64,000 nt of DNA from a phage. Each line of letters opens with the position of its first letter. The first letter of the stretch is position 1. The notes beneath the pieces are model-generated. The model was given only the letters and a program-made list of their open reading frames with translations. It ran no database searches and was not told the DNA's origin. The stretch is from the sequence record PV467749.1. One strand, written 5' to 3'. Below are positions 684-33,030 of this stretch, one piece after another. A program made the position numbers and the translations under genes.

Positions 684-2123
684 TTACATATTTTCTTCAG
701 CAAATTCTGCCAGTGGTGAACGAACGACACCTTCTAGTTCGATTACACGACAACCGTCCCAGTTCTTGAACTTCTCGGTAACATAAGTTAGACCGCTGTT
801 AACTGGACTAATGAATTTAGAGTCAATCTGGCTCAAGTTGCCCATAATAACCACTTTACAGTTCATTCCTGCACGAGTCAGGATTGTTTTAGCCTGAGCA
901 GGAGTAATGTTCTGGAATTCATCCACTACTAGGATAGTGTTTGTGAAAGAACGCCCACGAACGAAGTTTAGTGCTTTGAACTGGATAACATTACGTTTCA
1001 TGATTTCTTCGATACTGCCTTGTGGGTTAGCATCATCTTTGTGTAGGAATTCCAACGCATCAATGGCAGCTCCACAGAATGGAATCACCTTCTCTGCCTC
1101 AGAACCTGGCAAGAAACCAATGTCTTCGAATTGGGAATCTTGTGTTTTGGAGAAGATGATACGGTCGTATTTTTTCTTCTCTAGTACTAGCTCCAGTGCA
1201 GTAGCAATGGTGATCAATGTTTTACCAGTACCTGCGGAACCCAACAGTACTGTTAGATGAACATCAGGATCTAGAATACTGTTGATTGCTAGTGCTTGCT
1301 GAATATTCTTAGCCTTGATACCCCACACTTTAGCACGTAAAGCGACTGATTGTCCAACGTCTTGGAATACAAGAATATCTTCTGGTGTTAAAGTACCATC
1401 GTCTTCTTCAATTGCCGATTGACCTTCGTACACAAATAGAACATCAGCATTATCATATAGGTAATCACCGATGCAAATATTTTGTGGCATGATATGTTCA
1501 ATCAAGCTTTTTGGAATGTAGTGATACAAACGGCGACCAACTTGTTCAGATTGGATAGACACATCAGTTAGATTGCTATACACATCCCAAAAATCTAGGT
1601 CGAGGTGATGTTGACCAATGTGAATCAAATCACTATCACCAATCACGATATCATGACGGTAATCTTGAACTTCTACTCCGTAGCTTAGAGCCTTGATACG
1701 CATATTGATATCACGGGTAACCAGTACTGAATCAGTTGCTAATGCTACTAAAATGATTTTATCATCTGGTACTGTGCTTTTTAGAAGAGTTTGAACTTTC
1801 TCTTCGTTACCAGCAGTACGAATTAGTGCTTCAGCTTCTTCGCTTGTAATAACAAACAATTTGCTTTCAGGACTCATATTAGTATGAACATCAGCAATAT
1901 TAACACCAGTACTACTAATTTCTTCATGTGATGCATCAGAAAGGATTGCTTCAATGTTACGGATTGCAACACGAGCATCACGGGAAACATCCACATTACG
2001 ACTTTTGATTGAATCCAATTCTTCAAGTACTGTGAACGGTAGAATGATAGCTGCTCCATCAAAAGCAATGGTAGCATTTGGATCAGATAGTAGTACGTTT
2101 GTGTCAATTGTATATTTTTTCAT
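684..2123 (-). CDS. phoH: PhoH-like ATPase with N-terminal PIN domain (PhoH2/YlaK-type)
   Basis: 479 aa; N-terminal PIN-like acidic residues (IDTNVL...LEELD); Walker A LLGSAGTGKT; Walker B-like VVDEFQN. Confidence 0.85.
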   Translation of the reverse strand: MKKYTIDTNVLLSDPNATIAFDGAAIILPFTVLEELDSIKSRNVDVSRDARVAIRNIEAILSDASHEEISSTGVNIADVHTNMSPESKLFVITSEEAEALIRTAGNEEKVQTLLKSTVPDDKIILVALATDSVLVTRDINMRIKALSYGVEVQDYRHDIVIGDSDLIHIGQHHLDLDFWDVYSNLTDVSIQSEQVGRRLYHYIPKSLIEHIMPQNICIGDYLYDNADVLFVYEGQSAIEEDDGTLTPEDILVFQDVGQSVALRAKVWGIKAKNIQQALAINSILDPDVHLTVLLGSAGTGKTLITIATALELVLEKKKYDRIIFSKTQDSQFEDIGFLPGSEAEKVIPFCGAAIDALEFLHKDDANPQGSIEEIMKRNVIQFKALNFVRGRSFTNTILVVDEFQNITPAQAKTILTRAGMNCKVVIMGNLSQIDSKFISPVNSGLTYVTEKFKNWDGCRVIELEGVVRSPLAEFAEENM

Positions 2124-2813: not shown

Positions 2814-3365
2814 CTATAGATAGCTGATTAGTAAGTTTTCTTTTTGTACAAGATACTCTAATTCTTGTTTCGCAGTTCCGATGAAGTTCTGTGTCATAAG
2901 ATTATTATATCCTGCTTCTCGATTTTGTCCCTTCGAATAACGAGAGATGTGACATAAATTTACACCAGCCACCTCTGCACTAGCATGTTTGCCATATGCA
3001 TAATTATCACGAAGTTTTTTAAGTTCAGCATAAGTCATTTCATAACTATAGCTATGTGAGTGACCCTCTGGAAACAATTCAAGTGATTTTAATGGAGACA
3101 GGCGACTTTTGTCAATGATATAGTTCATTTCTTCTTGAACTTCACGCTGTAACGCATCTTCTAATGACTTATCAGTACTTTCAACTGTTCCACCACATGC
3201 ACCCAACAATCCATCCCAACGCACTTGTAGGAGTACTAAGTTAACCACTGGGATATCATTTAGTTCATAACCAGCGTATGGGGTACATTCTTTTGCATAA
3301 AAGAAACAGAATACAAAATTTGCACGTTTCCCCAGTTGTCCCAGTGGTACTTCAGCTTTACTCAT
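2814..3365 (-). CDS. Nudix-like hydrolase (imperfect Nudix box)
   Basis: 183 aa; GGTVESTDKSLEDALQREVQEE contains the REVxEE core of the Nudix signature, but the G-x5-E-x7 spacing is not canonical. Confidence 0.45.
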   Translation of the reverse strand: MSKAEVPLGQLGKRANFVFCFFYAKECTPYAGYELNDIPVVNLVLLQVRWDGLLGACGGTVESTDKSLEDALQREVQEEMNYIIDKSRLSPLKSLELFPEGHSHSYSYEMTYAELKKLRDNYAYGKHASAEVAGVNLCHISRYSKGQNREAGYNNLMTQNFIGTAKQELEYLVQKENLLISYL

Positions 3366-4114
3366 CGCATTCGTTCCTTAATTATAGTTTCAACCTGTGG
3401 AATTGCTTTCGTCGCAGGTTTGATGACTTTCTCATTAAAAAGAAAATCATTATCATTTTTTCGGATGTTAACATTTACACTATAGCATGGAAGTGCACCA
3501 GCTAGTCTGGACCATACCAGTACTGTATCACTACTTCCAATAACTACAACTGTATCATTTTCTGTGAGACTTTTCAACACTTCATTTCGTTCTTCATAAA
3601 TGGGGAGACGTACCCCATCAACGTAGCGATGATACTCACCAATCATCACTACATTTGGTTTTGCAAAAACATCAGCTTTAGGGATATATGGTTCATAACC
3701 ACAATTAATGACATTGTAATCATCGGTATTAATAGAAAAGTTCTCAATTACTTCACATAAATTGCCGTGTAGTTTGAGTTCGGTTCCACCAATTCTAGTA
3801 TATAGATCATCCATATTAGAAGTCATGTGTAAAAAACAATCACCATACAAATCTTCTAATGATTTAATAAAGTAATGCATTTCATTAGGATGACATTCAC
3901 CTAATTTTACACGCAATGTATTATAAAATGAATGAACTATATGATACTTAGAACTAAGTCGTGCAATGTTACAAACATCATTAATTTTGAAATTGTCCCA
4001 CAACCCATCATCAAAGCGGAATGGTTCCATCCCGCTCTCAACTGAAAGACCTGCCCCTGAAATTATAAGTAATCTTTTGTTCCCAGCATTTTGTATAAAT
4101 TTATCTGATATCAC
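3362..4114 (-). CDS. Sir2-family (sirtuin-like) NAD-dependent protein
   Basis: 250 aa; GAGLSVESGMEPFR matches the sirtuin NAD-binding motif GAG(I/L)S.ESG.P.FR; downstream LKLHGN (candidate catalytic His); no obvious CxxC zinc ribbon. Confidence 0.7.
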   Translation of the reverse strand: MISDKFIQNAGNKRLLIISGAGLSVESGMEPFRFDDGLWDNFKINDVCNIARLSSKYHIVHSFYNTLRVKLGECHPNEMHYFIKSLEDLYGDCFLHMTSNMDDLYTRIGGTELKLHGNLCEVIENFSINTDDYNVINCGYEPYIPKADVFAKPNVVMIGEYHRYVDGVRLPIYEERNEVLKSLTENDTVVVIGSSDTVLVWSRLAGALPCYSVNVNIRKNDNDFLFNEKVIKPATKAIPQVETIIKERMR

Positions 4115-6180: not shown

Positions 6181-6445
6181 ATTCTACAGTATTAAGCTTC
6201 TGACAAATCATGTCAGCTTCAACACGGTCTTTATAATAAATGGTAAAACCAAATTTACCAGTTACTTTATACTCTTTACAAGTTAAACAATTTACAATGT
6301 AGTACTTGTTGTTTTGTGCTGAAAATCGTACTTCATGATTACGCATCACTGGTGGAGTAGTATTATCATTTAATACCATCATCACTAAGAGTACAAGAAT
6401 CACAACTGCAAATGGAATACCTAAAATCAAGAAAGTCAAAGTCAC
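6179..6445 (-). CDS. hypothetical protein with N-terminal TM helix (88 aa)
   Basis: N-terminus MTLTFLILGIPFAVVILVLLVMMVL hydrophobic. Confidence 0.5.
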   Translation of the reverse strand: MTLTFLILGIPFAVVILVLLVMMVLNDNTTPPVMRNHEVRFSAQNNKYYIVNCLTCKEYKVTGKFGFTIYYKDRVEADMICQKLNTVE

Positions 6446-6918
6446 AACCCCTTATCATAAATGCAATTTACAATAATCCCAGCATCTTCCAGTACTTTAA
6501 TAGCTTCTGGTGGAGTGCGAGGATAACTTTTGTGATAAATCACGCGAGCAATACCACTTCCCGCGATCAACTTAGAACAAGTATAGCATGGTTGCAGCGT
6601 TGTGTAAAGTGTTGCTCCCTGACGTTCGGTAGGTGAACTGTATAACAATGCATTCATTTCAGCATGGATTTCATGGATATTACTCCATTCATGGTGTTCA
6701 TGCTTTGCGTCATCGCTAACCCAGTCTTGGAAACGTCCACCATTAACTAAGTGCTCATTAGCGTCACAGCAGTTAGGTTGTTTAGATGGAGTGCCATTAT
6801 AACCAGTACTCAATACTCGGTTATTTTTAACAATAACACAACCAACTTTCTGTGAAATGCATTTACTCTCTTCAGCCACGACTTCGGCTATCTTCAACCA
6901 CGTCAAGTGTTTCATCAT
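6442..6918 (-). CDS. cd: dCMP deaminase (cytidine/deoxycytidylate deaminase family)
   Basis: 158 aa; zinc-ligand motifs HAEMNAL and PCYTCSKLI (H-A-E ... P-C-x-x-C). Confidence 0.85.
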   Translation of the reverse strand: MMKHLTWLKIAEVVAEESKCISQKVGCVIVKNNRVLSTGYNGTPSKQPNCCDANEHLVNGGRFQDWVSDDAKHEHHEWSNIHEIHAEMNALLYSSPTERQGATLYTTLQPCYTCSKLIAGSGIARVIYHKSYPRTPPEAIKVLEDAGIIVNCIYDKGL

Positions 6919-8828: not shown

Positions 8829-9524
8829 TTAGACCCACTCTTCCACGCCACCGCGACGTTTGACGAGATACTTACCTTCTTCGTTGCGTGGACCAAGGAT
8901 GATACCATCAATGAAACCATGTTCACCGTATTCGAGTGCTTCTTCAGCGTTCAACCACAGGTCACGATCCGCATCTTTCAGTAGTTGTTCGTGTGATACA
9001 CCAACTGCTTCAGCGATTTCTTTAGTCAGTAGTGTGTTCAATGCATCAGAGTGTTTCAAGGAAATCTTCTGATCAGTAATCAGACCCTGAGTACCGGAAC
9101 TTACTTGGTGACACATGAAGTAAGAACGCTTACCACCTAGACGGAAACCTTTAGTACCAACTACTGATTGTGTATAGCAACCCATTGATGCTGCATAACC
9201 CATTACTACTGTACGGATAGGAGATACACAAGACTTAGCAATGTCAGCGATACCCAAACCTGCGTGTACTGAACCACCAGGAGAACTAATGTAGAAGGTA
9301 ATTGGTTCAGAACCCTGAGAATCCAACCACACCAATTGTTGCTTGATGATATGTGCCATTTGGTCATTGAAGTCAGTATCAAGGAAAATGATACGGTCTT
9401 GCATCATACGAGATGCTAGATCATAAGTACGTTCTGCACCATTAACTTTTTCAACTACATAAGGAATAGAAATGTTGCGAACTTCACCACCAGCATAACC
9501 ACCAAAATTGAATTGTTCAACCAT
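8829..9524 (-). CDS. clpP: ATP-dependent Clp protease proteolytic subunit ClpP
   Basis: 231 aa; SSPGGSVHAGLGI, GYAASMG (catalytic Ser region) and MCHQ (His) motifs; RBS AGAGGAAA; ATG 9524..9522. Confidence 0.85.
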   Translation of the reverse strand: MVEQFNFGGYAGGEVRNISIPYVVEKVNGAERTYDLASRMMQDRIIFLDTDFNDQMAHIIKQQLVWLDSQGSEPITFYISSPGGSVHAGLGIADIAKSCVSPIRTVVMGYAASMGCYTQSVVGTKGFRLGGKRSYFMCHQVSSGTQGLITDQKISLKHSDALNTLLTKEIAEAVGVSHEQLLKDADRDLWLNAEEALEYGEHGFIDGIILGPRNEEGKYLVKRRGGVEEWV

Positions 9525-10371: not shown

Positions 10372-11163
10372 TTAGATTTCAAATACAAATTTAGGATCGT
10401 AATCGAAGTTCTCACATGCACCACTGTAAGATTCATAACCTCTTGGATTACAAATGATACGAGTTTTCCCAATGTTGTAGTCAAAGCTACTATGAACGTG
10501 ACCATGAATCCAAACATCAGCACCCAAATCTTCGATGTACTGGTCCATATCAGAACAATAACATCCATTCAGTGAGTCATTCTTGTATCTCGGAGATACA
10601 CTCTGATAACTTGGTGCATGATGTGTTACCACCACAACCTTGAAATCATTATCATTCATTAGACGAACTGTGTTAACTGAATTTTTGATAAATTGTTTAT
10701 CCTGATGATGCATGAACTCAACATCATCAGGTTTGAGCTTACGTTTCCACGGTTCTGATGTTGTTCCATGACGAATGTGTTTATAATCATTCATCTTTTG
10801 TTGAGCATCAAACTTAACCAGTGCGTTGCCTTTATCAAAGTCAGTCCACAGTGTACTACCAACCAGCAGTACACCATCCAGCCATACAAATTTGTTTTGC
10901 AAAAAGATGAAATTTGGAATCTCATCTTGCATATCGGACAGTACTTTATTAGTCTTGTGAATGTTTGAACCGTAGTACTCATGATTACCAGGAACCAGTA
11001 CTACATTCTTGAACTGCTTGCACAGGGATTCGATACCAGTACGATAACGACTGCGTTTAGCTTCATCAAAGTCCCCTGCAATAATCAGTACTGTATCACT
11101 GTAATCACCACTATGGAGGTAATCAGTGCCACCGTGTACGTCTGACGTTACAACAAATTTCAT
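10372..11163 (-). CDS. calcineurin-like metallophosphoesterase
   Basis: 263 aa; SDVHGG, AGDFDE, VPGNHEY, VTHHAP, IHGHVH metal-binding motifs. Confidence 0.8.
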   Translation of the reverse strand: MKFVVTSDVHGGTDYLHSGDYSDTVLIIAGDFDEAKRSRYRTGIESLCKQFKNVVLVPGNHEYYGSNIHKTNKVLSDMQDEIPNFIFLQNKFVWLDGVLLVGSTLWTDFDKGNALVKFDAQQKMNDYKHIRHGTTSEPWKRKLKPDDVEFMHHQDKQFIKNSVNTVRLMNDNDFKVVVVTHHAPSYQSVSPRYKNDSLNGCYCSDMDQYIEDLGADVWIHGHVHSSFDYNIGKTRIICNPRGYESYSGACENFDYDPKFVFEI

Positions 11164-11182: not shown

Positions 11183-12601
11183 TTAACCAAGTGATTCAAG
11201 AATACTGTTAGAGAACACCTCAACAGCACTATCACGAATTTCTAAGATACGAGTATAGTCGTCACAAGTGTTTTTGTCAAATCTAAATTCAATAAACACA
11301 GGTAAAAATAGTGATGGTTCGCCAGTACGCTGATCATACACTATATCATTGCACTCCACGGTTACTACTTGACCAATGAGTTCTTGCATTCTTTCCCAAA
11401 TGGTTTTAAACGTCCATTCTGCGTCTTTCTCTTTAATTCCAGTACCTACATTAACTTTCAATGTACCACAAGCACTTTCCAGTTGTAAAGAACCAAGGCT
11501 ACCTTTACGCTTACCTTCACCTTCATTGAAACCAACAATACGCAAGTCCAATTGCATTTTAAGTTTCATTTTCAATTGCTTAGGAGAAGTGTGAGATTTC
11601 CAGATACCATCTTCACATTTCAGTACTGAACCCTCTTCACCTTCGTTCATTAGTTCACTATTGTACTCAAATGCTTCTTTGATGTTTAGAACTTTACGGA
11701 ATCCAACCATACGAACAAAATCACTACCGAGTTCGTTAATTGCATCTACTAAGATCTCGCGGCGTTCTTTGCGTTTTACATTCCATACACCTTCACAAAA
11801 TGCATCATATGGAACAACATCCCAGAGAACGAATACAGTACGCATTGCTTCATTCTGACTGATGCTATCTTTACCAGCTTTCTGGATAATACCGTTACCA
11901 GTAGTGCGTGGGAGAATGGTTTCTCCATCATTGTCCAGTACTACACCTTCACCCATAAAGACTACACCACTACTAAAACGTTCATCTTTACTTTGGATGA
12001 TGTGAGCAAGACCTGCCATTTCACCATCACGACAACCCAGGAAGTCGTATAGTTTACCATTACGGGATGTAGAAGTTAATGAACCATTAATGACAACGTG
12101 GTTCAAGTACTGACCATCCATTTTAACTTCTGATATAGCATAACCATAATCTTTGAAGTTAATGTTCTTTGCAGTCTTTTTGTCAATCAACGAACAACGC
12201 ATGTATGGTTCGTCTTTGATAAAACCTTTCCCGAACACATCATTGCAGTTCTTTTCTTGGATACCACAATCAAGGTTCTTCGTGAGCATTTTACGAAGAA
12301 CTTCCTGGTCATCTTCTGATACAGAACCCAGCACTGAAGCAATGAAGTCACGCCCAGCATTTCCGGTCACACCACGTTTGTAAATGCATTCTAGCTTATC
12401 AATTGCTTCGTCTAATGTCATATGTTGGTATACATCATCAGCTTGTGGTAGCTTTTTATACCCACTTACAATTGAAGGGTCTAGTGTATATTTCAGTACT
12501 TTTTGTAATGTTTGGTTATCTTTGTTTTGTTCAAGGATAGCTTTTTTACCCAGAGTACTGCTAGTATTTTTAATGCTTTCAAGAATTGCTAAAATGCTCA
12601 T
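11183..12601 (-). CDS. ATP-dependent DNA ligase (T4 gp30-like)
   Basis: 472 aa; N-terminus ILAILESIKNTSSTLGKKAILEQNKDN resembles T4 ligase N-terminus as recalled; nucleotidyltransferase motif I EVKMDGQ; motif IV-like EGSVLK; motif V-like LKMKLKMQLD. Confidence 0.8.
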   Translation of the reverse strand: MSILAILESIKNTSSTLGKKAILEQNKDNQTLQKVLKYTLDPSIVSGYKKLPQADDVYQHMTLDEAIDKLECIYKRGVTGNAGRDFIASVLGSVSEDDQEVLRKMLTKNLDCGIQEKNCNDVFGKGFIKDEPYMRCSLIDKKTAKNINFKDYGYAISEVKMDGQYLNHVVINGSLTSTSRNGKLYDFLGCRDGEMAGLAHIIQSKDERFSSGVVFMGEGVVLDNDGETILPRTTGNGIIQKAGKDSISQNEAMRTVFVLWDVVPYDAFCEGVWNVKRKERREILVDAINELGSDFVRMVGFRKVLNIKEAFEYNSELMNEGEEGSVLKCEDGIWKSHTSPKQLKMKLKMQLDLRIVGFNEGEGKRKGSLGSLQLESACGTLKVNVGTGIKEKDAEWTFKTIWERMQELIGQVVTVECNDIVYDQRTGEPSLFLPVFIEFRFDKNTCDDYTRILEIRDSAVEVFSNSILESLG

Positions 12602-18872: not shown

Positions 18873-19805
18873 TTAGAAATTTCCTTCAGCCACTTGGAAA
18901 ACTTTCAACCCAAGTAACTTACGCCACATGAATACAACTTGATTGCGGTCATCATAAACCTTTTTAACATCGTAATGATCAACCACATTTTTCATGTACA
19001 GGTCGAATTTTACAACATCATCAGGACGTTTATCATCAATGTCTCGCATAAACAATGCATCATAAGGAACACCCCAATTCTTAAGCCACTGTTCGGTATC
19101 AGCACGACACCCTTCAGTACGCCCACTCATGACGATAATCTTGCGTTTATGAAAAACTGCTTCTGCGATAATAGACAAAATAACTTCGTCGTCTGGTGTA
19201 TCCTGGAGTACAGTACTTTCATCGAACGGGTTACGTCCCCATTTATGAGCAAGAGTACCGTCGATATCAACGATAATAGCAGCTTCTCGTGAATTACCAT
19301 AGTAACCAATGTGTAATGCCTTACTATAATAGTACGTATCTGCCATAGTGTCAATGATATTATCTTGTACTGAACGCTCACGCTGGAGGTTATATTTCTT
19401 ACAAAGTTTTACGAACTCTTTAATCTTAAAGAATTCATGAACATCTGCACCACGGTCTTCATTAGGTACAAAATCATCATAGAAGTTCTTTTCTTTGTAA
19501 TCATAACCATTATCTATAGCCCATACTTTCCATAGATTACGGAAATGTTGTTTAAGGTTCGTATCGGATATGATGATGTTCCAACCATTCTCTGCTGCTG
19601 AATTTGCTGCACTGAACTGTAAATTAGTTACGTACTGCTCATTAGCATCGTTGAATTTGTAAGCATCATGTGACCCAGCCATAGATTCACGAATATCATC
19701 ACGGTTGATGTTGATAGTCTTGGATTTGGCTTTTTTAATCTCTTGCACTGCCCATGTAGTTTTACCACACCCAGGCAATCCAACTGTTAGTGTGATAGTT
19801 GGCAT
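18873..19805 (-). CDS. pseT: polynucleotide 5'-kinase/3'-phosphatase (T4 PseT-like)
   Basis: 310 aa; N-terminal kinase P-loop GLPGCGKT; C-terminal HAD phosphatase motif IVDIDGTL; N-terminus resembles T4 Pnk as recalled. Confidence 0.85.
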   Translation of the reverse strand: MPTITLTVGLPGCGKTTWAVQEIKKAKSKTININRDDIRESMAGSHDAYKFNDANEQYVTNLQFSAANSAAENGWNIIISDTNLKQHFRNLWKVWAIDNGYDYKEKNFYDDFVPNEDRGADVHEFFKIKEFVKLCKKYNLQRERSVQDNIIDTMADTYYYSKALHIGYYGNSREAAIIVDIDGTLAHKWGRNPFDESTVLQDTPDDEVILSIIAEAVFHKRKIIVMSGRTEGCRADTEQWLKNWGVPYDALFMRDIDDKRPDDVVKFDLYMKNVVDHYDVKKVYDDRNQVVFMWRKLLGLKVFQVAEGNF

Positions 19806-20627: not shown

Positions 20628-21770
20628 CTAAAAATCCTTTAGTACAATTTTCATGTACTTAATAAGAGTCTCTTTGTAATCGACTTTCTTATTGTTGTAC
20701 ATTGCAAAGGCCAAGCCCTGACGATTCAGTTCATTAGTTAAACACTCCTGAACCTTCTTAGCGAATTCCTTTCGCTCCAAGTGCTTGTGTTCCTTGACGA
20801 AGCTTTCAACTTCATCTTGTAAAGCATTATAGCACGAAAAGACTAGTTGTTCCATTCTTAATATCTTTTGGGTAGCATATTCGTCAGTACTGAACAACTG
20901 TTTTAAATCATCACTCGAACCATTTAATACAGCTTCATATAAATGGGAATCGATTATAATACTGTCTTTCGTTAAATGCAAAGAACAATACCAGTCGGTT
21001 TTGATTTTGCACATTGTACCATTATTTAGGATGCACACAAAACCTTCAATGTCAAGCATTTTCTTAACTTCTTCAACACTTTCTTTGAATGTAGCACGAA
21101 CAGGGAAAGTGTAATGAATATCTTTACCTGTCATGTTAGTACTGTACTGTGCAAGGCATGGAAACTTGTTACGTAATGCAGAACCACATAATAGTTCACC
21201 ACTCTTGCGATGGCGAACGTTTAGTACAAATATTTGTTCAACCTGGTATGGTAATACAATACGGTACTCTGGACTTGTATACTCCAGATTAACAGTATAG
21301 CCCAAACGGTCTGCTTCGTCAATGTATTGATACAAATTTTGGTTCTCATTGAGAAGACGAGTACTGTTAATCGCATGGTCTGAATACAATGCAGTATGTG
21401 ATTTACAACGAATTACACCATCATTATCACGGTAAGTACTGATTACTGAACCATCCAACTTAGGCATCACTACTGCAATGTCATCGAATGTGGTATCAGC
21501 AGGGAACATTGTAGCAGGATTTTCGTAAGCATTGAAGAACTTTTTCATAGTACGAGCAGCACAACGAATCATATCACCGTCTTCATCAATTTCCCACATA
21601 GAACCACGGGTTTCTAATGCATTGGGTTGCATGAAATCGGTATATGATGCTAGACGATAACTGAATACACGATACGTTCCACCAGCAGGACTTTTATGAT
21701 CCACATAAAAGAAAGCCTCACGGGTATTACATAAGTGCATTAAATCTTCATATATTTGTAAAAGGGTCAT
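20628..21770 (-). CDS. rnlA: RNA ligase 1 (T4 RnlA-like)
   Basis: 380 aa; covalent nucleotidyltransferase lysine motif PKLDGS; N-terminal region FFYVDHKSPAGGTYRVFSYRLASY resembles T4 Rnl1 as recalled. Confidence 0.8.
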   Translation of the reverse strand: MTLLQIYEDLMHLCNTREAFFYVDHKSPAGGTYRVFSYRLASYTDFMQPNALETRGSMWEIDEDGDMIRCAARTMKKFFNAYENPATMFPADTTFDDIAVVMPKLDGSVISTYRDNDGVIRCKSHTALYSDHAINSTRLLNENQNLYQYIDEADRLGYTVNLEYTSPEYRIVLPYQVEQIFVLNVRHRKSGELLCGSALRNKFPCLAQYSTNMTGKDIHYTFPVRATFKESVEEVKKMLDIEGFVCILNNGTMCKIKTDWYCSLHLTKDSIIIDSHLYEAVLNGSSDDLKQLFSTDEYATQKILRMEQLVFSCYNALQDEVESFVKEHKHLERKEFAKKVQECLTNELNRQGLAFAMYNNKKVDYKETLIKYMKIVLKDF

Positions 21771-26669: not shown

Positions 26670-26862
26670 GAATACGCTCACATGCCAGACAATAAATGCA
26701 CTCAATGTCAGGTCGCCATGATTTATCAAAATCTTTGTGCTGTTCTTCAGTGTATTCCGAATCATCATTGATGGGAAAGAAATCACCAGCACCAGAGGCC
26801 CAGTCTGAATCTAAACGGAAACGAGCTAATTGAGTACTGTTGCAATATGGACATTTATTCAA
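26662..26862 (-). CDS. small zinc-ribbon protein (66 aa), TTG start
   Basis: CPYC ... CIYCLAC motifs; only in-frame start is TTG overlapping the upstream stop, so uncertain. Confidence 0.35.
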   Translation of the reverse strand: MNKCPYCNSTQLARFRLDSDWASGAGDFFPINDDSEYTEEQHKDFDKSWRPDIECIYCLACERIHD

Positions 26863-27139
26863 AATTTATTCCTTCTAACTGATATACGTTTAATGAAAAT
26901 GACCCACTATTATTATCGCATCTGAAACACAGTGTTAAAGAACCATTAAAACTAACAACATCAGTACATATACATTTTTCACCATTGGATATGATAGATT
27001 TTCCTATATATAAATCTCTTACTATAGTACGGTAATGTTGCCATAAAAAATAATACACACTTTCATAGTACTCATCTTTTACATATGACAAGTATAAGAA
27101 TTTATAAAATACTTGTATTTCCTTTAAGTTGTTTTTCAT
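26855..27139 (-). CDS. tandem family C member (94 aa)
   Basis: N-terminus MKNNLKEIQVFYKFLY. Confidence 0.55.
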   Translation of the reverse strand: MKNNLKEIQVFYKFLYLSYVKDEYYESVYYFLWQHYRTIVRDLYIGKSIISNGEKCICTDVVSFNGSLTLCFRCDNNSGSFSLNVYQLEGINFE

Positions 27140-27413
27140 TCTCCAACTCCAGTAAATTTACACCAATCCAATCAACATCACTATCAGTACTTAATTCCAA
27201 TCGTAGCTTACCGCTATGACTAACAATATCTCGGAATTTGTATATTTTATTATCACGAACTATACACAAATCATGGTAATATTCATGTAATTCATCCAAA
27301 AACTTTATCCATACCGAACGATAGATTTCACCGTAGAGATATTCTCCAGCATCAACCGTAGCGTATTGGATATACAAAAATTTGTATGTGAATTGTATAT
27401 CATTAAGATTCAT
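27102..27413 (-). CDS. tandem family C member (103 aa)
   Basis: N-terminus MNLNDIQFTYKFLY. Confidence 0.55.
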   Translation of the reverse strand: MNLNDIQFTYKFLYIQYATVDAGEYLYGEIYRSVWIKFLDELHEYYHDLCIVRDNKIYKFRDIVSHSGKLRLELSTDSDVDWIGVNLLELENEKQLKGNTSIL

Positions 27414-27423
27414 ATGTCAATCC

Positions 27424-27735
27424 TTATAGGTCTGTCAACTTCAAAACTTTGATCTCCATAAATTCCCTATCAGTTTTTTCAAGAAATTCAACATGGATAA
27501 TACCTTGATAAGATTTGACACCTGAGTATTCGAATATATCATCGCCATCAGTGTAAGTACTGTAATTCTTTTTTATATATTCAGCAATAGAATCTAAGTA
27601 ATCATAGTAATTATTAATAAATGGTGATTCTTTTGATTCGACATGTTCACCAATCTTCCCACTAAAAAGATACATGTCATACAAACCATATATATTTTTA
27701 TATGTGAATTGAACATCATTCAAATTTAATTTCAA
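27424..27735 (-). CDS. tandem family C member (103 aa)
   Basis: N-terminus MKLNLNDVQFTYKNIY. Confidence 0.55.
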   Translation of the reverse strand: MKLNLNDVQFTYKNIYGLYDMYLFSGKIGEHVESKESPFINNYYDYLDSIAEYIKKNYSTYTDGDDIFEYSGVKSYQGIIHVEFLEKTDREFMEIKVLKLTDL

Positions 27736-27992
27736 GGGAATATCTCCAGAGGAACACTCGTAAATCCAAAATCAGTGTAGAACTGTACCTCTACTTTACC
27801 ATCGAGCTTAATGATTATATCTGAAAATTCTGCATGATCGTTGTTGATAATTACAGTACTGAATTTTTCTTTAATCCTCTCACGCACAATATTAATCATT
27901 TCAATACATGTATCTTCTAAAAATATACTATTATTTTTATTTGCTAGGTCACGAATGCACTTGAATGTTAATTGGAAATCTTTATAATTCAT
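27732..27992 (-). CDS. tandem family C member (86 aa)
   Basis: N-terminus MNYKDFQLTFKCI. Confidence 0.55.
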   Translation of the reverse strand: MNYKDFQLTFKCIRDLANKNNSIFLEDTCIEMINIVRERIKEKFSTVIINNDHAEFSDIIIKLDGKVEVQFYTDFGFTSVPLEIFP

Positions 27993-28258
27993 ATATTCAC
28001 CAAATCAACAGAGAATAAGTCGTTATCAAATTTATATGAAAGTACTAATCTACCACCAAAACTATCGACTCTAAGTATCTTTCGTTTTTTTCCATTAATG
28101 AAAATTTCAGTATTAACAAAATACTCACGTAATTCTTCTAGGTAATTTGACCATAATTTATGAGTAAACGCATTTTTATTAATTGTATTAGTACTTCTAT
28201 TATTGTGGTGTAATTTAAATAATTCCATATAAGTGAATTGTATATGTTTGTAATTCAT
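27989..28258 (-). CDS. tandem family C member (89 aa)
   Basis: N-terminus MNYKHIQFTYMELF. Confidence 0.55.
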   Translation of the reverse strand: MNYKHIQFTYMELFKLHHNNRSTNTINKNAFTHKLWSNYLEELREYFVNTEIFINGKKRKILRVDSFGGRLVLSYKFDNDLFSVDLVNI

Positions 28259-28270
28259 ATTTCCCCTTAC

Positions 28271-28297
28271 AAAAAAAGCCCGAACTTATGTCGGGCT
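28271..28297 (-). terminator. strong intrinsic terminator
   Basis: AGCCCGA-ACTTATG-TCGGGCT stem preceded on + strand by A7 (T-run after hairpin on minus strand); 3' of CDS 28305..28964. Confidence 0.7.
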
Positions 28298-28304
28298 ATA
28301 TGTA

Positions 28305-28964
28305 TTATTCATCGTCATCATCGTCGTCGAGATCTAGGTAAATGTCACCATCACCATCATCGAAGTACTCAACCACTACACCAGGAATGTTCAGTGCTGT
28401 AAACATCGCATCATATTTTTCATCAGATGGGATAAGAACAAACTCATCAATGCTTTGAATTTCAGGCATACGATCTTCAGGAATACCCATTTGCAACAAG
28501 GATTGGATGATTTTTTCCTTGTATTCTTGGAACTTCTCTTCTGATTCGAAATCCATAATAAGTTGTGCTACATAACCATCTTCGTTACCAAATGCGATTG
28601 ACATTTGTGCATCAGTACCGACATATGACCATGTACGCTTGCCAGTATTTTTCTCAATGAAGTTCTGAATTTCAAGAACGATTTCATGACGAGAACTATT
28701 GGCAATGTTGTTAAGGTTAGCAACACCAGCAATAATTTCTGAACTATCATTGGATTCTTCGAATGTACCATAGTCACCTAATACATATTGAACACCATCA
28801 CAATGTAATGCATATGCATAATCCAAATCAGCAAGTGAATCACACTTACCACGGATTGGGCGTAGGGAAAGCCCTAGGCGAAGATAACGAAAGTATGTAT
28901 TAGTATTTGTATTTGTCAACGTAATGCTCCTTAACAATATAAAAGTAGTTGCTGTTGTTGTCAA
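28305..28964 (-). CDS. acidic protein with poly-Asp C-terminal tail
   Basis: 219 aa track ORF; C-terminus DGDGDIYLDLDDDDDDE; contains SEEKFQEY (family-A-like); N-terminal 20 aa of the track ORF are low-complexity and overlap the upstream gene, so the start is probably downstream. Confidence 0.55.
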   Translation of the reverse strand: MTTTATTFILLRSITLTNTNTNTYFRYLRLGLSLRPIRGKCDSLADLDYAYALHCDGVQYVLGDYGTFEESNDSSEIIAGVANLNNIANSSRHEIVLEIQNFIEKNTGKRTWSYVGTDAQMSIAFGNEDGYVAQLIMDFESEEKFQEYKEKIIQSLLQMGIPEDRMPEIQSIDEFVLIPSDEKYDAMFTALNIPGVVVEYFDDGDGDIYLDLDDDDDDE

Positions 28965-29208
28965 AAAAGATGACTAATCCTTTGTAGACATTTACACCAA
29001 TCTTGATTTGGCATATTTTATTCGATTTACAAGCCTCAGTCAATAACATTTTGTGCTCTTTACTGAAAGTGTGGAAGAGTGGTTTTACATGCCACATCTC
29101 CACACCATCGAGTACTGGAAAATGTTCACTGAATTTGATCATTGATTCTTGTAAAAAATAACCTGTTAGATTCGAATCATCAGACATGTAAGTTCGCCAG
29201 GAAGTCAA
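28900..29208 (-). CDS. hypothetical protein
   Basis: 102 aa; start may be internal Met. Confidence 0.5.
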   Translation of the reverse strand: MTSWRTYMSDDSNLTGYFLQESMIKFSEHFPVLDGVEMWHVKPLFHTFSKEHKMLLTEACKSNKICQIKIGVNVYKGLVIFFDNNSNYFYIVKEHYVDKYKY

Positions 29209-29473
29209 TTACTTCGTCATGTGTTAACTTATCACTACGCTCTAGAACATTGATGATGAATGGTGTTTGACTATATAATTCAGCCAGAAAAGCAACTTCA
29301 TCAGATGTATAAGAATATCCCATAGGAACAACTTGTGCAGTCCAGTTTCCTAAAGTTTTGTTTGCAATGATTGCAACCACCGTATTACCTTTGAATTCAA
29401 CATGGATTGAACGGAAACCCGAATCCTCATTCTGATCCCAAAGTACTGGGTTAGTTTTGAACAGTACTGACAT
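29180..29473 (-). CDS. hypothetical protein
   Basis: 97 aa ORF. Confidence 0.5.
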   Translation of the reverse strand: MSVLFKTNPVLWDQNEDSGFRSIHVEFKGNTVVAIIANKTLGNWTAQVVPMGYSYTSDEVAFLAELYSQTPFIINVLERSDKLTHDEVIDFLANLHV

Positions 29474-29475
29474 AG

Positions 29476-30009
29476 TTATTTCCTCATGTATTTTATTACA
29501 TCTTCAAATAGTTTAGTTTTCAGTGCATCATCATTACCAGGTAGAAAAGTACTGAAGCTATTAAAATCTTCATTCTTGGCAAACTCACGCATCTGTGTGG
29601 AACTGTAGCGACTTACATTTCGGTCAATTCCAGCTTGAACTGCCTTGATTGAACAAAAATTATATAACTTCCCATTGTACGTGTCAAGTGTTTTTTGGAA
29701 TGGTTCAAGTCTGTCTGAACCACATATGAAAAGAACATCTAAGTACTTTCCATCCAGTTCTCTCATTATATCAAACAGATTATCTTCTGTATAGATATTT
29801 TCTTGTACAGATGGGTAAAATCCTTCTGTATAGTACATTTTCAGTTCAGGAGGTAATGGGTTTTTGACGGCATCAGTACTGGTACTAAGGAATATTTTCA
29901 AATCAGCATTGTACTGTTCTTGTAGTGCTTGAGCTTTTTCAAACACTAAACCATGACCTCGATGTATTGGGTTACATCTCATGAATGATAGTATACATGT
30001 TTCTTTCAT
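29476..30009 (-). CDS. HxGH-motif nucleotidyltransferase, NadD/NMNAT-like (NMN or NaMN adenylyltransferase candidate)
   Basis: 177 aa; N-terminal SFMRCNPIHRGHG resembles the (T/H)xGH motif of NadD (FDPIHYGH) and related cytidylyltransferase-fold enzymes. Confidence 0.55.
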   Translation of the reverse strand: MKETCILSFMRCNPIHRGHGLVFEKAQALQEQYNADLKIFLSTSTDAVKNPLPPELKMYYTEGFYPSVQENIYTEDNLFDIMRELDGKYLDVLFICGSDRLEPFQKTLDTYNGKLYNFCSIKAVQAGIDRNVSRYSSTQMREFAKNEDFNSFSTFLPGNDDALKTKLFEDVIKYMRK

Positions 30010-30530
30010 ATGTTCTTCATCACCTGACCAATAGATTTAAGATAGTTGATTTTAGCTGGAGTCAAATACTTATCCAGTACTATTAAACAACTAGGGAATG
30101 GTGCACTGTCCGTCTTTTTATCTGGTTCTTCAGGGATACCGAACTTTAAGCGACCTTTTATAAAACAAATACAGTCGCATTCTTTTGATGCATAGTTCTG
30201 AAACGCAACCGTATCGGTACGTGAAGGTACAAGTATCAGTACTGTAGCACCTTTGTTGTATGCATCAACTGCCTTAGATAACCACGTTTTCAAATCACTG
30301 TACGGTGGGTTGAGCCACACGATATTGTTTCCCCAGTCCTGTTCAAGTGAATTGTCTTCTGGTGTAAAGAACTTATCACACAATGCAGTTTCTTTAACAC
30401 AAGCTGCATCTAGTGTAAATTCCCAGAGTTCATCCAAATCTTCAAAGAAATCCTTTGGAGTAGTCCAGTTATCTTTTCCAGTACTGAAATGTACTGATTG
30501 TTTTTTCTTCGAAGCATCCTTCTTCGACAT
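30006..30530 (-). CDS. DNA N6-adenine methyltransferase (phage Dam-like)
   Basis: 174 aa; catalytic motif IV VWLNPPYS (NPPY); 4-nt overlap with the downstream nucleotidyltransferase gene. Confidence 0.75.
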   Translation of the reverse strand: MSKKDASKKKQSVHFSTGKDNWTTPKDFFEDLDELWEFTLDAACVKETALCDKFFTPEDNSLEQDWGNNIVWLNPPYSDLKTWLSKAVDAYNKGATVLILVPSRTDTVAFQNYASKECDCICFIKGRLKFGIPEEPDKKTDSAPFPSCLIVLDKYLTPAKINYLKSIGQVMKNI

Positions 30531-30546
30531 ACATAATTTCCTTTGA

Positions 30547-31092
30547 TTATAGACAGTTAAGTACTATGTCATCAAAAGTACTACTGTCAATGTTGTATTC
30601 ATATAAAAATTTAAAATGTGATCCATAACGCATCATCAGATTAAACTCTTCTTCAGTATTAAATTTGTAATCATGAAGAGTTTCAAGGGTACATGTTAAA
30701 CCTAAAAACTCAATAATTTCTGATGTTACATCATTTCCTGAATTGAAGTATTTAACCCAAACACATTTTCCTTGTGGGTTGAATTTTCTATATTCTCCTT
30801 CTAGTTCTCCATTGACGATATGTGCTTTCGCACTGATTAGATTATTACTATAACGCTCTTCGTAGTAGTTCCCATAACGAGCTTTAAGAATTGTAGGCTT
30901 CTTGGTTGGGAATAACTTAATGGAAGTTAATTCAAAACCGCACTGCAACTCTTTGATGTACGAAATACATCCCTTTTCTTTAATCACAACAAAACCAGTA
31001 AAATTCTCTTGGTCTTGGTTCTGATTGTCTGAATCAACAAATTCTAGTGTTTTATAAGTGACGCTTTTAGATTTTTTAATAAATGACATCAT
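30547..31092 (-). CDS. hypothetical protein with MORN/YwqK-like G-x-x-x-G-x-Y repeats
   Basis: probable start at tandem ATG ATG 31092..31087 with AGGAATA upstream; track ORF starts at GTG 31143; GELEGEYRKFNPQGKCVWVKYFNSG repeat-like segment; TEEEFNLMMRY resembles family-A core. Confidence 0.5.
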   Translation of the reverse strand: MMSFIKKSKSVTYKTLEFVDSDNQNQDQENFTGFVVIKEKGCISYIKELQCGFELTSIKLFPTKKPTILKARYGNYYEERYSNNLISAKAHIVNGELEGEYRKFNPQGKCVWVKYFNSGNDVTSEIIEFLGLTCTLETLHDYKFNTEEEFNLMMRYGSHFKFLYEYNIDSSTFDDIVLNCL

Positions 31093-31711
31093 TATTCCTA
31101 TGGAAACATCAATGACTGTACATGGCGTTGACTTCATCAACACCAGTCGAATTATACACGCTTCGCATGTCTAATTCGACGAAAGTACTATGATTTGTTT
31201 TAATTAATATTGACGGGGTTTGCTTGAGCATATTTCATCCCCCCGCAGGGGAAAGAACAAAAAAAGTTTGACGCTGGTGGCCTTCACATAGTTCATATCA
31301 CGAATTCTCTTACGAGGCGAAAGCGGGTTGCTCTGTTTCTCTCTATCGCGGTTCTTGTAGCAACGGTCGTCGGTCTTAAACATCCCGACACATAATACAA
31401 ATACCATATGACCAGTACTTGTATTTGATTTCACGAATTTTGGACGCAACTATATTGTATAAATTACGACCGCAAATTTCTCATGAAATCTCCCTTAGAT
31501 AATTGGTAAGGTGCGATCCTTATATGTCTATCGAGGAACTCTCTTTATCCTATTGGAGTTCTTTATACAGCCGCATTGCCGTGAGTGGTTCAAACTATGC
31601 CATCATCTAACGGGTTTCATTTGCTGTTCGTACTGAAAGGACTACTCATCTACCCTCTACTTTTCGAGTGGATTAGGCTTTAATCATTTCCATATGGAAC
31701 CTTTCAGGATT
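31093..31711. other. ORF-free, GC-enriched island (~620 bp): candidate structured ncRNA(s) or regulatory/origin region
   Basis: no ORF of 60 aa or more on either strand apart from an implausible 81-aa frame; visibly higher G+C than flanks; local hairpins (GTCGG..CCGAC; GTTGCT..AGCAAC); TATAAT near 31151; no tRNA T-loop motif found. Confidence 0.3.
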
Positions 31712-31745
31712 AAAAAAAGGCGACAACATATTCTGCTGTCACCTT
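31712..31745 (-). terminator. intrinsic terminator 3' of CDS 31774..32622
   Basis: minus-strand hairpin GGUGACAGCA-GAAUAU-GUUGUCGCC (10 bp with two G-U pairs) followed by U7. Confidence 0.6.
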
Positions 31746-31773
31746 ACATTATATCATAAACTTATGGTATGTC

Positions 31774-32622
31774 TCAGTTGTATTCTGTTTTTTCAGTGAA
31801 ATTAGTTAAGATATCTGCACTTAAGCTTCTCATAACCTCAATCTTACTTGGCATGAACCTGTGCTTGTTTTTTACATACAACTCATCATCTTCAATGAAA
31901 GATGTGAACATGAATACCATATCTTCACGTGGAATTGAGAGAATATTACAGTTTTCATTTTCAGCAACAGGGGAATCATTGTAGTACTTAGAGAATGCAG
32001 TACTTTGACGACCGATTATGATAGAATTTCGGATTAGAAAATTACTACAGTACTGAAAATCTTTGTAGTACTTGTCAAGGATATATGGCATTATCGCTTC
32101 TTTCACTTCTTCATATCCATTTGAACTATCAATTGCAGTACAATAATCTTCTCGGTCTTTATTCCCTCGATGATTATCAAACTCGTACTCAAAGAATAAA
32201 TTTTCATTTAATGAATTATTTGAACCAACTGATCCACTATAGTATGATTTTCTATCATTCATTCGATCATCGGGGCATGATGCATACATAGAAATGTCAT
32301 GTGTTGACGTACCGATATAAATTTTCTTAGTAATGTGATTGTACGCGATGTAATCATAATCTTGTACTCCAGTGAGCATTAACTGGAACATCAATTCATC
32401 AGGAACATCAATCAACGGGTACTCAAACTTCGAATATCTACTACGACAGAAATTCTTTTCAAATGCTCGATATGCGATGAAATCTTTTAGGTTTGTAATA
32501 GATTCATGCTCATGTGTATTACTGGTGCGTACATTGACATTAGTAGACGAGCAATACCCTTCAGATTCTTCTGTGTAGTCATAATAACCCTTACTGTAGT
32601 CAACGATTAGATAAAGTTTCAT
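31774..32622 (-). CDS. hypothetical Tyr/Asn/Asp-rich protein
   Basis: 282 aa ORF. Confidence 0.6.
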   Translation of the reverse strand: MKLYLIVDYSKGYYDYTEESEGYCSSTNVNVRTSNTHEHESITNLKDFIAYRAFEKNFCRSRYSKFEYPLIDVPDELMFQLMLTGVQDYDYIAYNHITKKIYIGTSTHDISMYASCPDDRMNDRKSYYSGSVGSNNSLNENLFFEYEFDNHRGNKDREDYCTAIDSSNGYEEVKEAIMPYILDKYYKDFQYCSNFLIRNSIIIGRQSTAFSKYYNDSPVAENENCNILSIPREDMVFMFTSFIEDDELYVKNKHRFMPSKIEVMRSLSADILTNFTEKTEYN

Positions 32623-32633
32623 ATATCTCCAGA

Positions 32634-32668
32634 CAAAAAAAGGACGAGATATTATATCCCGTCCTTTG
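32634..32668 (-). terminator. bidirectional intrinsic terminator
   Basis: AAAGGACG-(13 nt)-CGTCCTTT stem flanked by A7 and T-rich tract; directly 3' of CDS 32674..32979. Confidence 0.65.
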
Positions 32669-32673
32669 GTTTA

Positions 32674-32979
32674 TTAGTGGCTTGCCCAGCAGTAAACAGG
32701 ACGTAGATTTTCCATTGGGTTTACTTCAGGCTTCAGTACTGTAACACGAACTTCATACGGAGTACCATCTGCATGATGGAACGTTTCGTAATGAATACTC
32801 TCAATGAAGGTTTCATATTCTTCTTGAGAACGAGCACGAACTGATGGGGAATATTTCTTTTTGGTATCTGATTTTAGTGTAACACTTACTAGTTCTGATT
32901 CTTCACCATTTTCAAGTTTATTGAAATCGAACTCTGGTACACCTTCAAACATATCAAATTTCATTCCGTTGTCTTCCAT
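32674..32979 (-). CDS. hypothetical protein
   Basis: 101 aa ORF. Confidence 0.55.
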   Translation of the reverse strand: MEDNGMKFDMFEGVPEFDFNKLENGEESELVSVTLKSDTKKKYSPSVRARSQEEYETFIESIHYETFHHADGTPYEVRVTVLKPEVNPMENLRPVYCWASH

Positions 32980-33030
32980 TTTAAATTCCTTTTTATATAA
33001 TGTTAGTTAGATAGTTTTTAATAAATCAGA

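Follow-up and report, generated by a model that had tools for sequence, protein, structure and literature searches.

A short HIGH-motif nucleotidyltransferase encoded beside a Dam-family methylase in a Rak2-like jumbo coliphage, and the large, apparently virus-restricted family to which it belongs

The window analysed here is a stretch of 64,000 nucleotides of phage DNA (sequence record PV467749.1) from a Rak2-like jumbo coliphage of the genus Asteriusvirus, going by the taxonomy in the record of its relative TH47. Between positions 28000 and 32000 it is 98.2–98.7% identical, over the full length, to the Escherichia phages EC.P1, TH47, WPEC5 and vB_Ec-M-J, and ~85% identical to PBECO4. The G+C content of the window is 33.4%, and nearly all of its genes lie on the minus strand. 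Two of these genes form the subject of this study: an upstream gene (30006..30530, minus strand) encoding a 174-aa orphan DNA N6-adenine methyltransferase of the Dam family (PF05869), recognized by Pfam, PHROG and PADLOC, and a downstream gene (29476..30009, minus strand) encoding a 177-aa HIGH-motif nucleotidyltransferase of the cytidylyltransferase fold, which belongs to the phage 'cytitidyltransferase' family. Both open reading frames exist where a first-pass annotation, made from the sequence alone, had placed them, and its description of an enzyme of this fold adjoining an N6-adenine methylase with an NPPY motif is borne out by the comparisons below. The pair itself is ordinary; the interest lies in the 177-aa protein, a member of a very large, seemingly virus-only enzyme family whose annotation says little.

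The two genes share four nucleotides, the TGA of the methylase and the ATG of the nucleotidyltransferase being combined in an ATGA (30006..30009, minus strand), and the minus-strand junction reads AGGTGATGAAGAACATATGA. An overlap of stop and start had been noted in the first pass; the overlap, read from 30009 to 30006, is real, but the order of the genes had been reversed, the methylase being the upstream gene and its TGA the codon that overlaps the ATG of the 177-aa gene. A Shine-Dalgarno-like AGGTGAT (30019..30025, minus strand, read from GGTCAGGTGATGAAGAACATATGA) lies 9 nt upstream of this ATG, within the coding sequence of the methylase, and may act as the ribosome-binding signal for the nucleotidyltransferase. 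With a stop/start overlap and an upstream Shine-Dalgarno-like sequence both present at the junction, the two genes are probably translationally coupled, and we infer that they are co-transcribed.

The 177-aa protein begins MKETCILSFMRCNPIHRGHG and contains the motif P14-I-H16-R-G-H19. The presence of this motif, from which the first-pass annotation had started, is no accident: the protein matches phrog_3041 'cytidyltransferase' over residues 2–176 (3.9e-52) and is predicted with high confidence (pLDDT 96.4) to adopt a nucleotidyltransferase Rossmann fold. It also matches phrog_395 (4.6e-22), while Pfam scores to ATP-sulfurylase and a domain of unknown function (DUF) were at E ~0.02–0.1. A search of PDB sequences with the single sequence returned only a spurious match to the HIT family (E 0.66), and PADLOC matched neither the nucleotidyltransferase nor the small proteins encoded around it. 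Across 42 aligned family members, spanning 27–95% identity, residues H19, N50, R100, N112, S136 and R141 were invariant, and those nearly so included R11, P14, G18, S42, K57, G97, D99, Y111, Y116, G127 and R130. This alignment defines an N-terminal nucleotide-binding signature, R11-C-N-P-I-H16-R-G-H19 (29953..29979, minus strand), and a C-terminal motif, S136-S-T-Q-M-R141 (29587..29604, minus strand). Two of the conserved segments, (H/T)xGH at 16–19 and SSTxxR at 136–141, are motifs of the superfamily, the latter aligning with ISSSxxK/R of phosphopantetheine adenylyltransferase (PPAT), INSTEMR of NadM and ISGTKIR of MJ0951. Position 16 is T in most of the family and H in the jumbo-phage branch. 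The segments S-x-S-x-D-x-x-KNPL, GSDR (97–100) and YNG..YNF are specific to the family.

The AlphaFold2 model made with the family alignment (pTM 0.89) has a five-strand Rossmann core and a C-terminal helical subdomain. When this model was compared with the PDB by Foldseek, the matches included, interspersed with one another, NadD (E 2e-6, TM 0.59), PPAT (E 2.5e-6, TM 0.65) and human nicotinamide mononucleotide (NMN) adenylyltransferase NMNAT1 (E 4e-6); no NadM-type NMN adenylyltransferase (NMNAT) was among the 50 matches listed. A search of PDB sequences with the family profile gave MJ0951 (1.2e-4), PPAT of H. pylori, matched over the full length (1.5e-4), NadD (3e-4), an NMNAT (9x6f; 4e-4) and MJ0541 (3e-3), with E-values of a similar order throughout. 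By hhalign against single sequences, the NadM-Nudix protein of Cronobacter phage GAP32 scored 85.6% (E 5.6e-6, 141 columns), followed by E. coli NadR (65.7%, 33 columns), E. coli NadD (24.7%, 23 columns) and E. coli CoaD (8.8%). A best match to PPAT or to a glycerol-3-phosphate nucleotidyltransferase (GCT), which the first-pass annotation had named as the outcome that would speak against its assignment, did not occur in these profile and structure comparisons. The assignment itself, to NadD/NMNAT, fared less well. The two NadD equivalog models of NCBIfam, TIGR00482 and NF000840, scored only 16.1 and 15.7 bits (E ~0.008) against cut-offs of 112.45 and 150, and membership of the NadD family was rejected on these scores; the NCBIfam models for NadM, NadR and PPAT gave no match at E ≤ 1.

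The N-terminal third of the protein is strikingly NadM-like. Its M-R11-C-N-P-I-H-R-G-H has the same spacing as the NadM signature, which reads GRMQPFHRGH in the NMNAT of M. thermautotrophicus (1ej2) and GRFQ..H.GH in 2qjo, 2qjt and GAP32_112. Further along, LSTSTDAVKNPLPPELK aligns with GS...KNPF...ER of NadM, the common segment being S-x-S...KNP(L/F). NadM-Nudix proteins have, after strand 3, a segment D-(W/Y)-x-Y-x4-W that is conserved in Synechocystis, Francisella and GAP32 and that we take to be the nicotinamide-stacking site; hhalign pairs D-Y-V-Y-N-N-S-K-W with Y73-T-E-D-N-L-F-D-I81, where Ile faces the Trp and where members of the family vary. The YYLxxFPxW of NadM is replaced by GSDR....YNG, of which GSDR aligns with RGLR of PPAT. 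Judged on these alignments, the 177-aa protein would belong to a clade of its own within the HIGH superfamily, with NadM as the nearest family, its predicted nucleotide site intact and its acceptor side different; membership of the NMNATs is not established by them.

By tblastn the family was found in 537 phage records. The 177-aa gene occurs in 33 Escherichia (Asteriusvirus) records at 85–99% identity, and has homologues in Klebsiella phage KP13-7 (56%) and in GAP32 (39%); further carriers are Pelagibacter phage HTVC008M, Caulobacter phage Cr30 and Pseudomonas phage PA5oct. About 436 of the 537 records are marine cyanophages, at ~30–34% identity, and 366 are Synechococcus phages. When 1.84 billion representatives of clusters at 50% identity were searched exhaustively with a profile, 3444 matched at E ≤ 1e-3, 2267 of them at E ≤ 1e-10. 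Two scans of cellular genomes by narrow peptide patterns, in which 185,579 species of bacteria and archaea were represented by one genome apiece, detected the family on just 39 contigs. All 39 came from metagenome-derived bins (MAGs), assigned to many unrelated phyla, and isolate genomes yielded none. These 39 contigs look like mis-binned phage contigs, and on such comparisons the family appears to be restricted to viruses. Its members are called 'cytitidyltransferase' in T4-like cyanophage genomes; in the relatives of the window the GenBank labels are cytidyltransferase, phosphopantetheine adenylyltransferase, 'ribonucleotide reductase A' and hypothetical. The gene pair is already annotated in these relatives and is not a new system, and we found no discussion of the 177-aa gene in the published Asteriusvirus genome papers.

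Most members of the family are not short, stand-alone proteins; the domain instead forms the N terminus of proteins of 300–1200 aa. These long forms carry DUF5824, and of the 150 best representatives at least 7 also have a P-loop kinase domain of the Zeta_toxin/AAA_33 type. Compared by BLASTP with the T4-type polynucleotide kinase of the window, the kinase domain of the long forms showed similarity only at the P-loop. A second protein, DUF6267 (PF19782, 2.2e-121), is encoded no more than five genes upstream of the domain, and mostly one to three genes away, in ~16 of 80 viral loci and in 16 of the 39 from MAGs. Another 5 MAG loci, and the phrog_455 profile, have it as an N-terminal fusion with the domain; a count of DUF6267 either just upstream or fused came to 22 of 39 MAG loci and ~18 of 80 viral loci. 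We found no literature on DUF6267 or DUF5824. DUF6267 was looked for in the window and in the genome context of TH47, and none was found there. Its invariant motifs are K-x-D-G, QGD, E-G-x-V and K-x-V-x-R. By eye only, KxDG, EGxV and KxVxR resemble motifs of ligases and capping enzymes; a profile search of the PDB, and hhalign against the Rnl1-like RNA ligase and the ATP-dependent DNA ligase of the window, revealed no similarity. Long cyanophage forms have been detected in virion proteomes, where they were named NMNAT or cytidylyltransferase by homology alone (PMC9602691; PMC10665884).

Gene overlaps are common in the window. By a simple longest-ORF call across its whole length, 21 of the 129 minus-strand gene junctions carry the same 4-nt overlap and 64 overlap in some way, so that the overlap between the methylase and nucleotidyltransferase genes is not distinctive, and a reading of it as something special was rejected. 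The 4-nt overlap is kept in KP13-7, whose methylase is 68% identical to that of the window; in GAP32, where the methylase is 41% identical, a 3-nt spacer lies between the two genes. Among 80 viral loci from IMG/VR, the methylase gene adjoins the nucleotidyltransferase gene in 7, all from jumbo phages, and all 7 also keep the flanking genes for the 198-aa and 97-aa proteins, one on either side of the pair. The remaining 73 have no neighbouring methylase, and the same is true of the homologue loci in cyanophages, PA5oct, Cr30 and HTVC008M. As conservation in these 7 loci extends to the flanking genes, the adjacency is block synteny, inherited within the Rak2-like jumbo lineage; the genome is a tightly packed one, and the adjacency provides no evidence of joint function.

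One might nevertheless take the conservation of the adjacency or ATGA overlap across three genera, at 39–56% identity for the nucleotidyltransferase and 41–68% for the methylase, as the mark of a functional DNA-modification pair, in which the nucleotidyltransferase would serve the methylase by supplying or recycling a cofactor, or would itself attach a nucleotide-linked group to DNA. We consider this most improbable. The same 7 loci share their flanking genes, 73 of the 80 viral loci do without a methylase neighbour, 4-nt overlaps are frequent in the genome, and PF05869 methylases are self-sufficient enzymes dependent on S-adenosylmethionine (SAM). A functional cassette of the two genes was rejected in favour of block synteny. 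The first-pass proposal of an auxiliary or anti-defence cassette that includes the methylase likewise finds no support in an adjacency that is limited to the Rak2-like jumbo lineage and is part of a larger syntenic block.

The methylase matches Pfam Dam PF05869 at 4.3e-33 (114.8 bits; cut-off 28.1), phrog_111 DNA methyltransferase at 5.5e-57 and the PADLOC model for orphan methyltransferases (oMTase) at 6.9e-36; its score with TIGR01712 phage_N6A_met, 95.7 bits, is slightly under the cut-off of 97.05. The NPPY catalytic motif (motif IV) is at residues 74–77 (30300..30311, minus strand), and is replaced by NCPY in the orthologue of KP13-7; the orthologue in GAP32 is GAP32_068. Comparison by sequence with solved structures gave none that was close. 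From its scores, the upstream gene is predicted to encode an ordinary phage Dam-family orphan methylase.

As a separate observation, GATC is ~2.3-fold depleted despite the phage-encoded Dam-family methylase, with 93 sites observed in the window against 219 ± 16 expected, and with 581 against 1243 in the TH47 genome. GTAC is over-represented (observed/expected 1.4–1.6). GCGC is wholly absent, both from the window (25.2 ± 5.0 expected from dinucleotide shuffles) and from the whole TH47 genome of 352,450 bp (~172 expected). This absence suggests very strong selection against a site of the HhaI/HinP1I type (or the HaeII type), or another sequence constraint.

As to the context of NAD+ metabolism, GAP32 encodes a canonical NARP2-type pair, NadM-Nudix (GAP32_112) and the nicotinamide phosphoribosyltransferase Nampt (GAP32_114; see also PMC5259590), ~21 kb downstream of its methylase and nucleotidyltransferase genes and between the genes for a dCMP deaminase and a Sir2-like protein. 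By tblastn, orthologues of both were found in Mimasvirus, Eneladusvirus, Alcyoneusvirus (including KP13-7), Salmonella Munch-like phages and EJP2, and no Asteriusvirus was among the best matches to either query. Any match to NadM-Nudix was seen in 10 Escherichia-phage records, versus 33 with the 177-aa gene. The syntenic region of the window contains genes for an ATP-dependent DNA ligase (11183–12601), a metallophosphoesterase (10372–11163), ClpP (8829–9524), dCMP deaminase (6442–6918), a Sir2-like protein (3362–4114, minus strand), a Nudt16-like Nudix protein (2814–3365, minus strand) and PIN-PhoH (684–2123, minus strand). In the slot between the deaminase and Sir2-like genes, where GAP32 has NadM-Nudix and Nampt, the window has just two unrelated ORFs. 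The complete genome of TH47, a phage with 98.75% identity at the locus, was searched by tblastn. A single query stood for each family (Nampt and NadM-Nudix of GAP32, and NadD, NadR, PnuC and CoaD of E. coli), and none gave a match better than E = 0.1, while the positive controls, i.e., the nucleotidyltransferase, Sir2 (1.6e-63) and Nudix (4.5e-98), were all recovered. The nicotinamide phosphoribosyltransferase for which the first-pass annotation had proposed a search elsewhere in the genome was among those not detected in TH47.

Asteriusvirus seems either to have lost the NARP2-type pair or never to have gained it. In the records with Nampt (<55 for this host) or NadM-Nudix (<8), Synechococcus is outside the ten commonest host genera. 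The distribution of the family is thus uncoupled from that of Nampt and NadM-Nudix. Nmnat is also encoded by 94% of phages with a KVP40-type Nampt (10.1101/2024.02.11.579819). For the 177-aa protein the argument from an NAD+ 'pathway' is removed, and NMNAT activity on NMN derived from the host could still occur.

We consider it likely that the 177-aa protein works by itself as an active catalytic domain and belongs to a HIGH-motif clade confined to viruses, and at least as likely that it is an active nucleotidyltransferase of the phage 'cytitidyltransferase' clade. As an enzyme with the 'cytidylyltransferase-like' fold, akin to the class-I aminoacyl-tRNA synthetases, it would hold a nucleoside triphosphate (NTP), most likely ATP, by means of R11, H16-x-G-H19, GSDR and S136-S-T-x-x-R141. 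A phosphate or similar group of the acceptor would then attack the α-phosphate of the NTP, with release of pyrophosphate. Since the clade is the sister of the NadM-type NMN adenylyltransferases, NMN, with NAD+ as product, is the best single guess for the acceptor, albeit a tentative one. A genuine NMN (or nicotinic acid mononucleotide, NaMN) adenylyltransferase would make NAD+ during infection from NMN derived from the host, in an auxiliary metabolic or anti-defence role like that of the Nmnat step of NARP2 or NARP3. The closeness to NadM makes such a reading possible rather than probable: no NadM or NadR model is matched and the NadD models fall far short, NadM is hardly closer to the protein than PPAT or NadD, and YTEDNLFDI has Ile for the Trp of the NadM motif. 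Moreover, TH47 has no Nampt, NadR (the nicotinamide riboside kinase) or PnuC as partner, and sister genera keep the gene in addition to a canonical NadM-Nudix and Nampt, which argues against simple redundancy. A CoaD-like PPAT, as the gene is annotated in Escherichia phage Turkey3, is far less credible, given the low hhalign score with E. coli CoaD, the lack of a match to any NCBIfam PPAT model, the Arg of G-R-x-x-P where PPAT has G-T-F-D-P, and a neighbourhood containing no other gene of the CoA pathway.

The architecture of the long forms could point to a different kind of function. The partner or target of the protein would then be a macromolecule, or else an unusual nucleotide-linked metabolite; the pathway would be peculiar to phages and would also involve DUF6267 proteins and P-loop kinases, and the short form of the jumbo phages would be an isolated catalytic module. 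The N-terminal position of the domain in large proteins with DUF5824 and Zeta_toxin/AAA_33 kinase domains fits this idea, as do the recurrent placing of DUF6267 upstream of the domain, or fused to it, and the detection of long forms in cyanophage virions. However, the short form has no extra domain, neither the window nor the TH47 context contains DUF6267, and comparison of DUF6267 with ligases, both those of the PDB and those of the window, showed no similarity. Fusions with kinases also occur in small-molecule pathways, as in NadR, CoA synthase and PAPS (3'-phosphoadenosine 5'-phosphosulphate) synthase, and are equally typical of them. We think such a function unlikely for the 177-aa protein, and a part in some different, DUF6267- or kinase-linked pathway little likelier. 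A broader proposal, speculative but worth stating, is that the family, the 177-aa protein included, is no conventional NMNAT and instead a virus-specific nucleotidyltransferase with a new acceptor, whose partners in many phages are DUF6267 (possibly ligase-like) and kinases of the Zeta/AAA_33 type, and which is often delivered with the virion; in a milder version it would be a single-gene, Nampt-independent route from NMN to NAD+ that counters NAD+-depleting defences.

Several points weigh against regarding the 177-aa protein as an active enzyme of a virus-restricted clade distinct from the NMNATs. With Pfam CTP_transf_like it scores 13.6 bits, below the gathering score of 21; membership of the superfamily (PF01467 clan) is transitive, because homologues pass the threshold (GAP32_069 at 27.4 bits, P-RSM6 at 35.2, and 40 of 57 long forms). 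NMNATs supply the top two structural matches as well as the top profile–profile match, and it is quite possible that the protein is a plain NMNAT. The absence of the Trp motif of NadM is read from a low-confidence stretch of an hhalign alignment with a single target sequence, and the absence of salvage genes from a close relative, TH47, rather than from the whole source phage, with one tblastn query for each family. The patterns used in the cellular-genome scans were narrow, so that the restriction to viruses could be overstated. Finally, we found no biochemical study of any family member in the literature, and activity and substrate are hence deduced from sequence and predicted structure.

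Should NAD+ prove to be the product of the family, phages would have in it a widespread addition to their NAD+ supply that needs one gene only and is independent of the NARP pathways. If not, the labels NMNAT, cytidyltransferase, PPAT and ribonucleotide reductase would be misleading across hundreds of genomes, and the linkage to DUF6267 and kinase modules would point to an undescribed phage pathway. A virus-specific enzyme with a new acceptor would imply a new phage pathway that builds or repairs a nucleotide-linked molecule early in infection.

The genes around the pair are tightly packed. Upstream of the methylase is a 198-aa gene (30547..31143, minus strand; phrog_16210, 1.8e-81), 16 nt from the methylase ATG. 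Downstream, 2 nt separate the TAA of the nucleotidyltransferase (29478..29476) from the ATG (29473) of a 97-aa gene (29180..29473, minus strand; phrog_14956, 2.4e-43). Next come two further genes (28305..29208, minus strand) of 102 aa (phrog_38105) and 219 aa (phrog_15575), which are probably the end of the transcription unit shared with the methylase and nucleotidyltransferase. A consensus scan, the sole basis for both features, picked out two terminator-like hairpins on the minus strand: one of 12 pairs with a T run (31717..31745), which would end the preceding transcription unit, and one of 7 pairs, 5 of them G-C, followed by TTTTTTT (28277..28297). Between them they probably bound a unit of about six genes, i.e., those for the 198-aa protein, the methylase, the nucleotidyltransferase and the 97-aa, 102-aa and 219-aa proteins. 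The nucleotidyltransferase would thus be expressed, together with the orphan methylase, from a block of about six early-type genes. The promoter of this unit probably lies just downstream of the hairpin at 31717–31745, in the region 31204–31773.

Some features of the promoter region were recorded in their own right. Positions 31450–31773 contain ~324 nt of non-coding sequence, among the largest gaps in coding density of the window, and the region 31204–31773 also has a locally G+C-richer stretch with a CCCC-GCA-GGGG hairpin at ~31231–31245 and a doubtful 81-aa ORF starting with TTG. Within the 177-aa gene, on its coding strand (29659–29687, minus strand), there is a perfect σ70 consensus (TTGACA, 17 nt, TATAAT; 12/12), which points toward the downstream small genes; promoter-like matches in the region overall were not above the expectation from shuffled sequence. 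A scan of 28000–33000 against Rfam gave no match, and tRNA genes, looked for across the window, were not found.

Further from the pair, five tandem small paralogous genes (26855–28258, minus strand) encode proteins of 86–103 aa that are 18–29% identical, all with MN(L/Y)xDIQFTYK as an N-terminal motif and, close to the C terminus, a conserved Gly. A T4-type RNA-repair pair lies 8–10 kb downstream of the methylase and nucleotidyltransferase genes: a polynucleotide kinase-phosphatase (AAA_33 + HAD_PNKP, 3.6e-43; 18873–19805) and an Rnl1-type RNA ligase (RNA_lig_T4_1 + T4_Rnl1_C; 20628–21770), both on the minus strand. On the other side, 34815–60203 (minus strand) is a run of ~45 consecutive same-strand ORFs, mostly of 140–210 aa and all 'hypothetical' in the annotation of WPEC5, which possibly represent expanded paralogue families typical of Rak2-like phages.

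Compared with known systems, the methylase is a clear member of the phage Dam-family orphan methyltransferases (PF05869, TIGR01712), with an NPPY motif and a length of ~170 aa, and differs from them in nothing notable. For the nucleotidyltransferase, the NARP2 (Nampt plus Nmnat) and NARP3 (PnuC plus NadR-like) pathways would offer an analogous HIGH-type adenylyltransferase step if the substrate were NMN; they are, however, multi-gene pathways, whose partner genes are absent from TH47 and from the syntenic slot of the window. NadD, the bacterial NaMN adenylyltransferase, is set apart by equivalog cut-offs far above the scores of the 177-aa protein, and PPAT/CoaD by GTFDP, where the 177-aa protein has an Arg-containing GRxNP and no CoA context. 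The NadM-type NMNATs (MJ0541, 1f9a; 1ej2; Francisella, 2qjt; Synechocystis, 2qjo) are 13–15% identical to it and have D-x-x-Y-x4-W and Y-Y-L-x-x-F-P-x-W segments where the 177-aa family has GSDR and YNG..YNF; unlike NadM-Nudix, the 177-aa protein has no Nudix fusion and no Nampt partner. The closest likeness is to the phage 'cytitidyltransferase' family itself (S-PM2, P-SSM2, P-HM2, GAP32_069 and Serratia phage BF), with TM scores of 0.85–0.93 between predicted structures and all invariant residues shared. Within that family the 177-aa protein is a short, stand-alone form with HxGH, whereas most members are long, with TxGH and with C-terminal DUF5824 and/or kinase modules, and some are associated with the virion.

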